64,000 bases of DNA from an uncultured Clostridium sp. (GCA_945877035.1 CAMCQH010000001.1:64258-128257); one strand, 5' to 3'. Positions 20,000-21,175 are shown, counted from the stretch's first letter. Numbers and translations are program-made. Notes: a model not told the origin generated them from the sequence alone.

Positions 20000-21175
20000 T
20001 TAAACATTCACATATAAAAGTGGACGGAAGCTGACGTCGTCGCTGCTGAAAGAAGTGCTGTAGTTGCTGCGACGACTCATGTAGAATTCGGAACTACCGT
20101 AATCGCCTCCTCGAAGGACACAAGGACCGCTGGAAAAGCTAAAGGTTTCTGTTGTCCATTCGACTATATTGCTTGCCATATCATATACATTACATTGCAC
20201 ATCTTTTGTTTCTTGGTTATTTGTTCCTGTTGTTGCTAGTTTACTGTTTACACTAGTTTTTCTTGAATATGTTTCATTATCTCCACATGTTTGTAAGAAT
20301 AGTGTTGCTGTATCCCATGCATAACTATTCATTAAGTCACTTGTGAATGTTTTTGCATTTGGATACATATTTCTTGCCAAGTCTGCTGCTTGTATTTGTG
20401 TTACATAATTATAAACATAGTCGCTTGCTTTTGTTGTTAATGTTGTTAATTCATCTGTTTTTGCACTTCTTGCTGTTCCTGTTCTTGCCTCATATCTTCC
20501 AATATAAAATCCTCCACTTTGTGTTGCTGATGCTTTTGTTCTAAATGTTTCAATATCTTTTGCATGTGTATTAGTTGTTGTATCACTTGCTTTTCCTTCT
20601 GTATAATAGTAGCTTGAACTAGAGCTTGTTTTTAATTGACCTTCAGGCTCTGTTTGTGATAATGTTGTATCTATTGTTCCATCTTCTTTAAATACATATC
20701 TTCCTAATTCTATTGTTTTTGATGCTGTTTTTTCCGCATTTGTATAAATTGTTCCTACTGGTATCCATACAAATTCATTTTCATTGCTATCAATTATTAC
20801 AATTCCTTTATCTACTGTTGTTGCGCCTCCTGTTATTTTGAATCCTGCTGGTACTGTTATTTTATTCCCATATGCATCTACCATTGGTGAATTAACTTTT
20901 TTTGTTAACATGTCATCTGTTTGTGCTTCTGCTATTGTTGTTGCTGGTTTATCATTATTTCCTATTGCTTCATTAATTTCTGCTACATAATTTTTTAATT
21001 TTTGTTCTTCATCTTTCTGTGCATTTTCTGTCCTCTTCTTTGCCTCCTCAGCTTCTGCAAATAGTCCTTGGTTAGTTAATGCTGATATTGAAATTCCTGC
21101 CAAGATCAACAATATAATTATAGTCAAAACCAAGGCTACAAGTGTTATACCTTTTGTTTGCTTTAATTTGTTCAT
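20000..21175 (-). CDS. Pilin-like N-terminus fused to an FGE-sulfatase (SUMF1/C-type-lectin-fold) domain
   Basis: The N-terminus MNKLKQTKGITLVALVLTIIILLILAGISISALTNQGLFAEAEEAK is nearly identical to the short pilin at 43784-44002. The C-terminus has GGFYIGRYEA, NIVEWTTE, VLRGGDYGSS and VSFRPLLYV, which are FGE-sulfatase family motifs. Confidence 0.65.
   Translation of the reverse strand: MNKLKQTKGITLVALVLTIIILLILAGISISALTNQGLFAEAEEAKKRTENAQKDEEQKLKNYVAEINEAIGNNDKPATTIAEAQTDDMLTKKVNSPMVDAYGNKITVPAGFKITGGATTVDKGIVIIDSNENEFVWIPVGTIYTNAEKTASKTIELGRYVFKEDGTIDTTLSQTEPEGQLKTSSSSSYYYTEGKASDTTTNTHAKDIETFRTKASATQSGGFYIGRYEARTGTARSAKTDELTTLTTKASDYVYNYVTQIQAADLARNMYPNAKTFTSDLMNSYAWDTATLFLQTCGDNETYSRKTSVNSKLATTGTNNQETKDVQCNVYDMASNIVEWTTETFSFSSGPCVLRGGDYGSSEFYMSRRSNYSTSFSSDDVSFRPLLYVNV

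Follow-up and report, generated by a model that had tools for sequence, protein, structure and literature searches.

The gene at positions 20000..21175 (minus strand, stop codon included, ATG start) of a 64,000-nucleotide stretch of DNA from an uncultured Clostridium sp. (GCA_945877035.1, CAMCQH010000001.1:64258-128257), hereafter called the window, raises the question of why a protein of 391 amino acids should begin like a type IV pilin, continue as a C-type-lectin fold related to the formylglycine-generating enzyme (FGE) and end in a run of codons so rich in G+C in a 27% GC genome. A preliminary description had proposed a pilus-incorporated or pilin-anchored enzyme or lectin-like domain, and had seen in the G+C-rich end and a neighboring Rpn nuclease gene the signs of acquisition or recombination. 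Our analysis leads to a different account of this end: the product is likely a surface-displayed hypervariable ligand-binding protein, in which a pilin-like leader and helix are joined by a linker to an FGE-type C-type lectin carrying a variable region (VR) written by a diversity-generating retroelement (DGR). We classify the gene as a DGR target, remote or orphaned, whose pilin module consists of the helix only and lacks the Glu5 of usual pilins.

The mechanism that we propose would work as follows. The protein would be built from a type-IV-pilin-like leader with its alpha-1 helix (amino acids 1-70), a linker and the lectin domain, whose last ~44 codons (20019-20149) would constitute the VR. 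The reverse transcriptase (RT) of the retroelement would copy a template repeat (TR) rich in AAC/AAT codons and misincorporate nucleotides at the template adenines, and the mutated cDNA would replace the VR. The expected outcome is a set of invariant scaffold codons dispersed among NNC/NNT codons, that is, an A-poor and G+C-rich tail. At the other end of the protein, the N-terminus would be processed by the prepilin peptidase of the pilus cluster encoded in the window, and the protein presented on the pilus or its tip, or as an anchor.

The G+C-rich tail and the template repeats of relatives

Between 20024 and 20149, the DNA has a GC content of 0.52 and an A content of 0.21, as compared to 0.32 and 0.47 for the rest of the gene. 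The codons of this tail are chiefly AGC, TAC, GAC, TTC, GTC, TCC, CGC and AAC, and 23 out of 41 end in C, a proportion far beyond chance since such codons represent 5.7% in the long open reading frames (ORFs) of the window (binomial P=2e-18); the next-best stretch of 41 codons in any ORF of the window contains 10 of them. The G+C-rich 3' end reported in the preliminary description is therefore real. Alignments of the protein family show strong conservation through the segment CNVYDMASN, beyond which invariant residues (EWTTET, PC, RGG, Y, S.R, TS and FRP) alternate with hypervariable ones. The scaffold codons are identical at the nucleotide level across species whose proteins share only ~55% identity, including codons that are rare in the genome (CGA, GGC, CGT), as in CGA GGA GGC, ACT TCT and TTC CGT CCA; the variable codons in relatives are nearly all NNC or NNT. 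Over 84 members, the column entropy amounts to 3.20 bits at the positions where TRs have AAY, versus 1.01 bits elsewhere (P=3e-7). Judged by these codons, the tail bears the footprint of a DGR, in which the adenines of AAC/AAT codons copied from a template have been mutated, and we place the putative VR at 20019..20149 (minus strand; amino acids 343-386 of 391), where scaffold codons alternate with NNC/NNT codons derivable from template AAY.

The retroelement itself was found beside relatives of the gene. A homologue search returned thousands of proteins of ~385 amino acids, none of them annotated by Pfam, from uncultured gut Clostridia of human, mouse, rabbit and chicken. Relatives of the gene were examined at 79 loci in GTDB, which all come from metagenome-assembled genomes of uncultured gut Clostridia; at 5 of these loci the family gene is adjoined by the DGR-type RT motif SQMFANIYL...YMDD (SQxFANxYL...YMDD). 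Three of the five RT-bearing loci (L067, L069 and L058) present, downstream of the RT, a repeat of the gene tail of ~140 nt, and in these pairs 17-19 of the 20-22 mismatches are changes from a template adenine to any nucleotide, the remainder being located at the 3' junction. The first patterns designed for predicted TRs gave zero matches in genome, viral and metagenome collections. The segment GAATGGACAACA, which had been considered as a part of the TR, turned out to lie outside it, and the scaffold codons to be GTC and AGA/CGA rather than the assumed GAY and CGN. After correction of the TR pattern, the search recovered 15 further loci in metagenomes, which together with L109 provided 12 distinct TRs, and gave no match in IMG/VR. 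When VR and TR are in cis (L067, L069, L058, L092, L094, L100, L101 and L109), the pairs exhibit 16-21 adenine-type mismatches against 0-4 others.

These cassettes are chromosomal and comprise, in order, the target, a MutS-like protein (MutS_I), Avd (bAvd), the RT (RVT_1, PF00078) and the TR. They sit among housekeeping genes, for example gyrA or rpsF-ssb-rpsR, and their RT clade gave 2982 sequence matches at E<=1e-40 in gut metagenomes. In two species, the interval that separates the TR from gyrA contains two small conserved ORFs of ~80-100 and ~70-107 amino acids (L100 5413-5984 and L109 7369-7961); they may be extra components of the cassette or unrelated genes. The length of the TR is polymorphic among close strains through the copy number of AAC (134 nt in L094, 137 nt in L103 and L109, 125 nt in L104), and VR lengths vary to match the TRs, with one additional codon in L002c and, in L109, a cis VR one codon shorter than its own TR. 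A tandem array of family genes also exists, with three copies in one assembly (L002 7266-11164) and two in another (L003 8638-11164). In the two-copy version, one gene is a hybrid that joins copy a's N-terminus to copy b's VR, which points to unequal recombination between paralogues.

The boundary of the VR is conserved as well. The segment TTCCGTCCACTTTTATAT (20012..20029, minus strand), delimited by the VR/TR alignments, resembles an initiation of mutagenic homing (IMH) site and may function as such. In the alignments of L067, L069 and L058, the 3' junction reads CACTTTTATA in VRs versus CACTCTAATA in TRs. The boundary in the window, CCACTTTTATA, is the same as in the cis VRs, the TRs reading CCACTCTAATA, and a near-identical VR-type boundary (...CGTCCACTTTTATAT) is found in L002a. 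Downstream of the VR, neither the window nor the cis targets showed a convincing G+C-rich homing hairpin. Because the G+C-rich NNC tail exists in every member of the family, and because relatives have next to the RT a TR that differs from it by adenine-specific mismatches, the 3' end of the window gene is best read as a DGR VR and not as a patch of foreign DNA.

The pilin-like N-terminus and the lectin-fold domain

The first residues of the protein form a short, basic leader with Gly as its last residue, behind which come ~20 hydrophobic residues (MNKLKQTKG, then ITLVALVLTIIILLILAGISISAL). We annotate a putative class III (prepilin) leader, MNKLKQTKG (21149..21175, minus strand), with a predicted cleavage after Gly9, and a pilin alpha-1 helix module (amino acids 10-70; 20966..21148, minus strand), folded in the AlphaFold2 model as helices at residues 12-34 and 38-70. 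This module is the counterpart of a whole mature pilin, the 72-amino-acid helix-only type IV pilin encoded at 43784..44002 (minus strand), which aligns over its full length with the N-terminus of the target (63% identity, E=6e-11). The preliminary description had noticed this resemblance, and it holds: out of the first 32 residues counted from the Gly, 29 are identical between the two proteins. Only 14 of these 29 residues use identical codons, which indicates that the likeness is kept by selection on the protein and does not result from a recent copy or gene conversion.

The type IV pilus cluster to which this small pilin belongs, also mentioned in the preliminary description, is genuine. It extends over 37728..46927 on the minus strand and was delineated by Pfam matches, ORFs and leader motifs: PilC (37728-39077; T2SSF, 1e-23), PilT (39085-40188) and PilB (40293-41939), the two proteins matching T2SSE (5e-103 and 5e-43), two pilin-like ORFs recognized by their leader motifs (41975-42412 and 42642-42860), a prepilin peptidase candidate (42873-43679; A24_N_bact, 1e-30), the 72-amino-acid pilin and a PilM/N-like protein (45290-46927; PilN, 1e-5). 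The 72-amino-acid protein passes the N_methyl profile (PF07963, 23.2 bits for a cut-off of 21.2), and this bare alpha-1 helix is likely the major pilin of the cluster.

Three results speak against a pilin-like processing and display of the target. Its N_methyl score is 10.5 bits, under the cut-off passed by its 72-amino-acid twin, so that the prepilin profile proposed as a check in the preliminary description does not recognize it. The residue at +5 is Ala in place of the usual Glu, and is Ala or Ser family-wide. The peptidase candidate at 42873-43679 matches only the N-terminal A24_N_bact domain, and no catalytic Peptidase_A24 domain was found in it at E<=0.01; this domain may be divergent.

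The alternative that survives best starts from the first two of these results. In that case, the N-terminus would be an uncleaved signal anchor and the protein a DGR variable protein tethered to the membrane, with no relation to the pilus; a shared type of hydrophobic helix would then explain why it looks like the pilin. Besides the missing Glu and the low profile score, this explanation has in its favor that the gene is 23 kb away from the pilus cluster, that family members elsewhere are not beside pilus genes and that most cellular DGR targets have been described as anchored to the membrane via an N-terminal transmembrane segment or a signal peptide (PMC8144416). It accounts poorly for a likeness that spans all 72 amino acids of the pilin, among them those of the helix's polar second half, and that is conserved at the protein level despite codon divergence. 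Within the family, G9-I10-T11-L12 are near-invariant, as is the Gly at -1 after a short basic leader, N_methyl matches at E<=0.01 exist in 48 out of 84 members, and the family profile matches Geobacter PilA-N (9egp, the best PDB match for the N-terminal helix module, E=1e-3). The three pilin-like ORFs of the cluster (41975-42412, 42642-42860 and 43784-44002) all lack Glu5 too, with mature ends G/ITLVAL, G/ITMISL and G/VTGIDI (the slash follows the Gly at -1), so the absence of this residue is a trait of the system. Finally, all six cis targets inspected share the leader [KQ]G/[IV]TLIALV, from which we conclude that proteins with a pilin leader are the canonical targets of this DGR clade. We regard the signal anchor as a serious though doubtful possibility, and lean, by a little, towards an N-terminus cut by the prepilin peptidase of the cluster and a protein shown on or at the tip of a type IV pilus, or serving as a pilin-like anchor.

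The remainder of the protein is better defined. The AlphaFold2 model, computed from 84 sequences (pLDDT 81.8, pTM 0.79), begins with a long helix at the N-terminus (residues 12-70); the other part is a domain of mixed alpha/beta structure, annotated as an FGE-type C-type-lectin-fold domain (amino acids ~95-391; 20003..20893, minus strand) by Foldseek and by a partial match to PF03781 (FGE-sulfatase). The Foldseek matches of the domain are PvdO (5hha, E=5.6e-4), TvpA (2y3c, 6.4e-4), Mtd of a Bordetella phage (1yu0, 1.1e-3), FGE (2q17, 6e-3) and TaqVP (5vf4). The model thus suggests a C-type-lectin fold belonging to the FGE subtype, used by DGRs as a binding scaffold that tolerates variation, and supports the architecture put forward in the preliminary description, a pilin-like module followed by such a fold; the motifs on which that proposal was based (GFYIGRYEA, VEWT, VLRGGDYG and VSFRP) are all present. 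The corresponding profile match is real (E=6e-4) but falls below the threshold, with 20.0 bits for a cut-off of 23.3, and it covers only the C-terminal third (profile positions 157-252). At E<=0.01, PF03781 is matched by 26 of the 84 family members, the best E being 2.6e-4.

This weak match and the FGE structures among the fold matches could also suggest that the pilus system delivers an enzyme of the FGE/SUMF1 kind, as in the enzyme option of the preliminary description. The catalytic cysteine pair of FGE is located C-terminal to the RGG(S)W motif. Residues 356-391, which follow the RGG motif in the window protein, contain no cysteine, so the active-site pair is absent; this segment is moreover hypervariable, the profile match is partial and sub-threshold, and TvpA, Mtd and TaqVP, which are DGR binding proteins and not enzymes, give equally good fold matches. 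We consider an enzyme to be highly improbable, and the sequence of the segment after RGG would rather designate the domain as a binding module.

Status and surroundings of the window copy

If the tail was written by a retroelement, one may ask where this element is, and several results weigh against a copy that is still being rewritten. No RT motif was found in the 64-kb window, so that no RT is next to the target, and neither blastn (word size 7) nor an 'equal-or-A' sliding scan detected a TR in the window or in the first 10 loci. Samples ERZ9426318 and ERZ9426320 also contain at least two paralogues, P0003 (L005/L006) and P0018 (L108), which by their co-occurrence would belong to the same genome as the window gene; at their loci there is no RT within 10 kb and no TR. 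No cognate TR was seen, and in alignments to relatives' TRs the window VR shows 29 adenine-type and 12 other mismatches over 133 nt, with the best available, non-cognate one, and 21 and 7 over 91 nt. In related species the VRs look static: P0118 is identical on 135 contigs, and in the P0093 cluster (29 members) 11 aligned members differ at just 3 VR positions. Lastly, several lineages, at least two, carry a disrupted RT gene, a situation that fits orphaned VRs.

Such interruptions, located in many lineages just before the GNYTSQ motif of the RT, are of two classes. In L094 (1120-2131) and L109 (6001-7012), the insertion of a single C splits the RT into ORFs of 204 and 142 amino acids, and dozens of distinct RT clusters at 90% identity (P0255, P0296, P0320 and others) are all ~202 amino acids long, one of them being present on 803 contigs. 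In L090, L092 and L101, the RT is interrupted by an in-frame stop codon plus a poly-A frameshift. The cis VR/TR pairs stay clean despite the interrupted RT, as in L092 with 18 adenine-type mismatches and no other. The interrupted genes could reflect recurrent recent inactivation, or an RT that is split or depends on frameshifting.

With no TR or RT in 64 kb, and none within 10 kb of two paralogues, the window copy is a remote or an orphaned target. That remote copies can be genuine DGR targets is suggested by the tandem paralogues L002a and L002b, which have no RT in their 21-kb locus (~7-10 kb around the copies). Their VRs show respectively 18 adenine-type mismatches against 1 other and 14 against 1 when aligned with the TR type of L094, L104 and L109; the RT fragment P0255 of this cassette type is on a contig of 3,120,837 bp, and L002a and L002b are likewise on a 3,120,837-bp contig. 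The opposite situation also exists, since L062, a remote paralogue in the genome of the L058 DGR, has 30 non-adenine mismatches to the L058 TR, which means that some paralogues are not live targets. For the window copy, continued activity is consistent with the GC content of its VR (0.52, as compared to 0.45-0.52 for cis VRs), with its intact 3' junction and with a scaffold common to the VRs of the window and of L108, while the VR of L005 looks eroded (GC 0.39) and would argue for quiescence. We picture the window copy as a remote member among at least three paralogues of the same samples, with a TR that would be related, but not identical, to those recovered. It is probably quiescent or orphaned, and the chance that it is still rewritten in trans seems somewhat short of even.

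Several candidates for a link between the window gene and a cassette were set aside. P0197, searched as the RT of this genome via RT homologues sharing the signature, comes from other samples. L100 and L109, where the cassette is upstream of gyrA, suggested that one might lie just past the window edge; this was dismissed, positions 61376-63832 encoding a P-type ATPase and not gyrA. The exact 391-amino-acid protein (P0001) is present on three public contigs, and its closest GTDB relatives have at most 52% identity. At the locus of P0003, 3.7 kb upstream of this paralogue, grpE and dnaK are separated by a gene for an Avd-like four-helix bundle (L005 5910-6263; 23S_rRNA_IVP, weak bAvd), whose sequence shows no relationship to the bAvd of the cassettes (E=0.29).

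The lack of RT and TR in the window and the stability of VRs within species might be taken to mean that no retroelement took part, and that ordinary diversifying selection, acting on an adhesin, made the tail hypervariable. This explanation is very improbable: it leaves unexplained the nucleotide-identical scaffold codons of distant species, the C or T in third position at nearly all variable codons, the one-to-one match of these codons with the AAY codons of TRs and the RT/TR cassettes in cis beside family members, whose adenine-specific VR/TR pairs refute it for the family.

The other reading of the tail, which the preliminary description had favored, is that of a segment acquired or recombined from a donor of higher GC content, perhaps promoted by the adjoining Rpn nuclease. 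The neighbor on which it relied does exist: an Rpn/PDDEXK_2 nuclease gene (18791-19606, minus strand, E=1e-38), a 'transposase' type gene, is located ~400 nt 3' of the target gene. The locus was also assembled independently (L001), and this contig stops 204 nt beyond the target gene, ~190 nt before the Rpn gene, which suggests that the latter is a repeated element. A Transposase_31/Rpn gene is also present in L109, ~1.4 kb upstream of the cis target gene of the DGR. Even with an abrupt GC jump at ~20150, the nearby Rpn gene and the break of the independent assembly, a foreign donor is scarcely credible, because an equal jump and the same tail characterize all members of the family, whose chromosomal contexts are unrelated and contain no Rpn genes, because the change consists of a loss of A and a gain of NNC codons at alternating positions, and because relatives' TRs differ by adenine-only changes.

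As for the immediate surroundings, a ribosome-binding site GGAGG can be read from the sequence at 21186..21190 (minus strand), ~10 nt 5' of the ATG, and scans for promoters and terminators flanking the 20000-21175 gene gave nothing exceeding the shuffled background. Beyond the Rpn gene, a T-box leader (RF00230, 94.2 bits) at 18048-18293 (minus strand), upstream of pheS (16812-17861), occupies some of the long intergenic stretch that separates pheS from Rpn. On the other side, the divergent neighbor (21536-22765, plus strand) encodes a membrane protein of 409 amino acids, assigned to DUF8173 by the public gene call of L001; it has a signal peptide, its N-terminal half is repetitive and beta-rich, and several transmembrane helices are present at the C-terminus.

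Comparison with known systems and significance

The closest parallel for the variable domain is TvpA from Treponema denticola, which has a C-type-lectin fold belonging to the FGE subtype and a VR at its extreme C-terminus, as does the window protein (the Foldseek match to 2y3c cited above). The T. denticola DGR is also cellular rather than phage-borne, and a single DGR serves several paralogous targets, some of them far from the RT (PMC5758913). The two proteins share only ~16% identity, and TvpA is a lipoprotein whose DGR uses an HRDC accessory gene, whereas the targets described here have a pilin leader and helix, and the accessory proteins are MutS-like and Avd. The cassette of the relatives, with its MutS_I protein, bAvd, RVT_1 and TR, corresponds to the DGR 'Architecture D' (MSL + avd), which includes the Legionella DGR (PMC5758913). 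Wu et al. 2018 had 16 examples of this architecture and also documented remote DGR targets (PMC5758913); the present system differs by thousands of RTs, a TR downstream of the RT and a dedicated family of pilin-leader targets. With FGE/SUMF1 (PF03781), the likeness concerns the overall fold, but the catalytic cysteine pair is missing, the profile score is sub-threshold and hypervariable residues occupy the location of the active site.

On the pilus side, two systems can be compared. In Bacteroides, another gut commensal, the type V pilus tip pilins BfrT, BthT and BunT have a DGR-written C-type-lectin head on a pilus subunit, for which a role as diversifiable adhesin has been proposed (bioRxiv 10.1101/2024.11.15.621889). 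These pilins from Bacteroidota are type V, made as lipoprotein precursors joined by strand exchange, and their DGRs are often on integrative and conjugative elements or prophages; here, the N-terminus is that of a type IV pilin, the hosts are Clostridia and the cassettes are chromosomal, with no match in IMG/VR. The modular type IV pilins PilB (with a vWA module) and PilC (with a lectin) from Streptococcus sanguinis also have a class III signal peptide and a pilin module followed by a linker and a binding module (PMC8179133). Raynaud et al. 2021 found such pilins to be widespread in monoderms and proposed that their modules are at the pilus tip (PMC8179133), so the judgement that the window protein does not have a standard pilin architecture was overstated. 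The S. sanguinis modules are static and detectable by InterPro, whereas the window protein has an FGE-type C-type lectin with a surface that would be written by a retroelement, and a bare alpha-1 helix without globular pilin head or Glu5.

Each of the three elements was known before, the DGR target, the remote target and the modular type IV pilin, and it is their combination that is uncharacterized. In the literature searched, no paper coupled DGRs to prepilin or pseudopilin terms, and there was only one line, in a survey, that named a GspG-type pilin domain for proteins with a VR. The family escapes Pfam thresholds. A genome often contains several of its genes, mostly at a great distance from an RT, and these would thus be missed by DGR pipelines which require a VR beside the RT, a limitation of the standard pipelines that has been stated (PMC8144416). 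From a practical point of view, a G+C-rich and A-poor 3' tail of NNC codons in an AT-rich genome is a flag by which orphan or remote DGR targets can be marked from their sequence.

The widest version of our proposal, which we put forward as speculative and rather unlikely in its entirety, is that in uncultured gut Clostridia a chromosomal MutS-like/Avd/RT retroelement rewrites, in cis and in trans, the binding tips of a multi-copy family of scattered pilin-fused lectins, of which the window gene would be a live remote member. If true, this would provide the bacteria with a pilus-displayed, antibody-like repertoire of adhesins, and no earlier case would link a DGR with type IV pili, or be found in Gram-positive bacteria. 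Should the protein be displayed on the pilus, the family would offer a testable model of programmable adhesion in abundant uncultured gut anaerobes.

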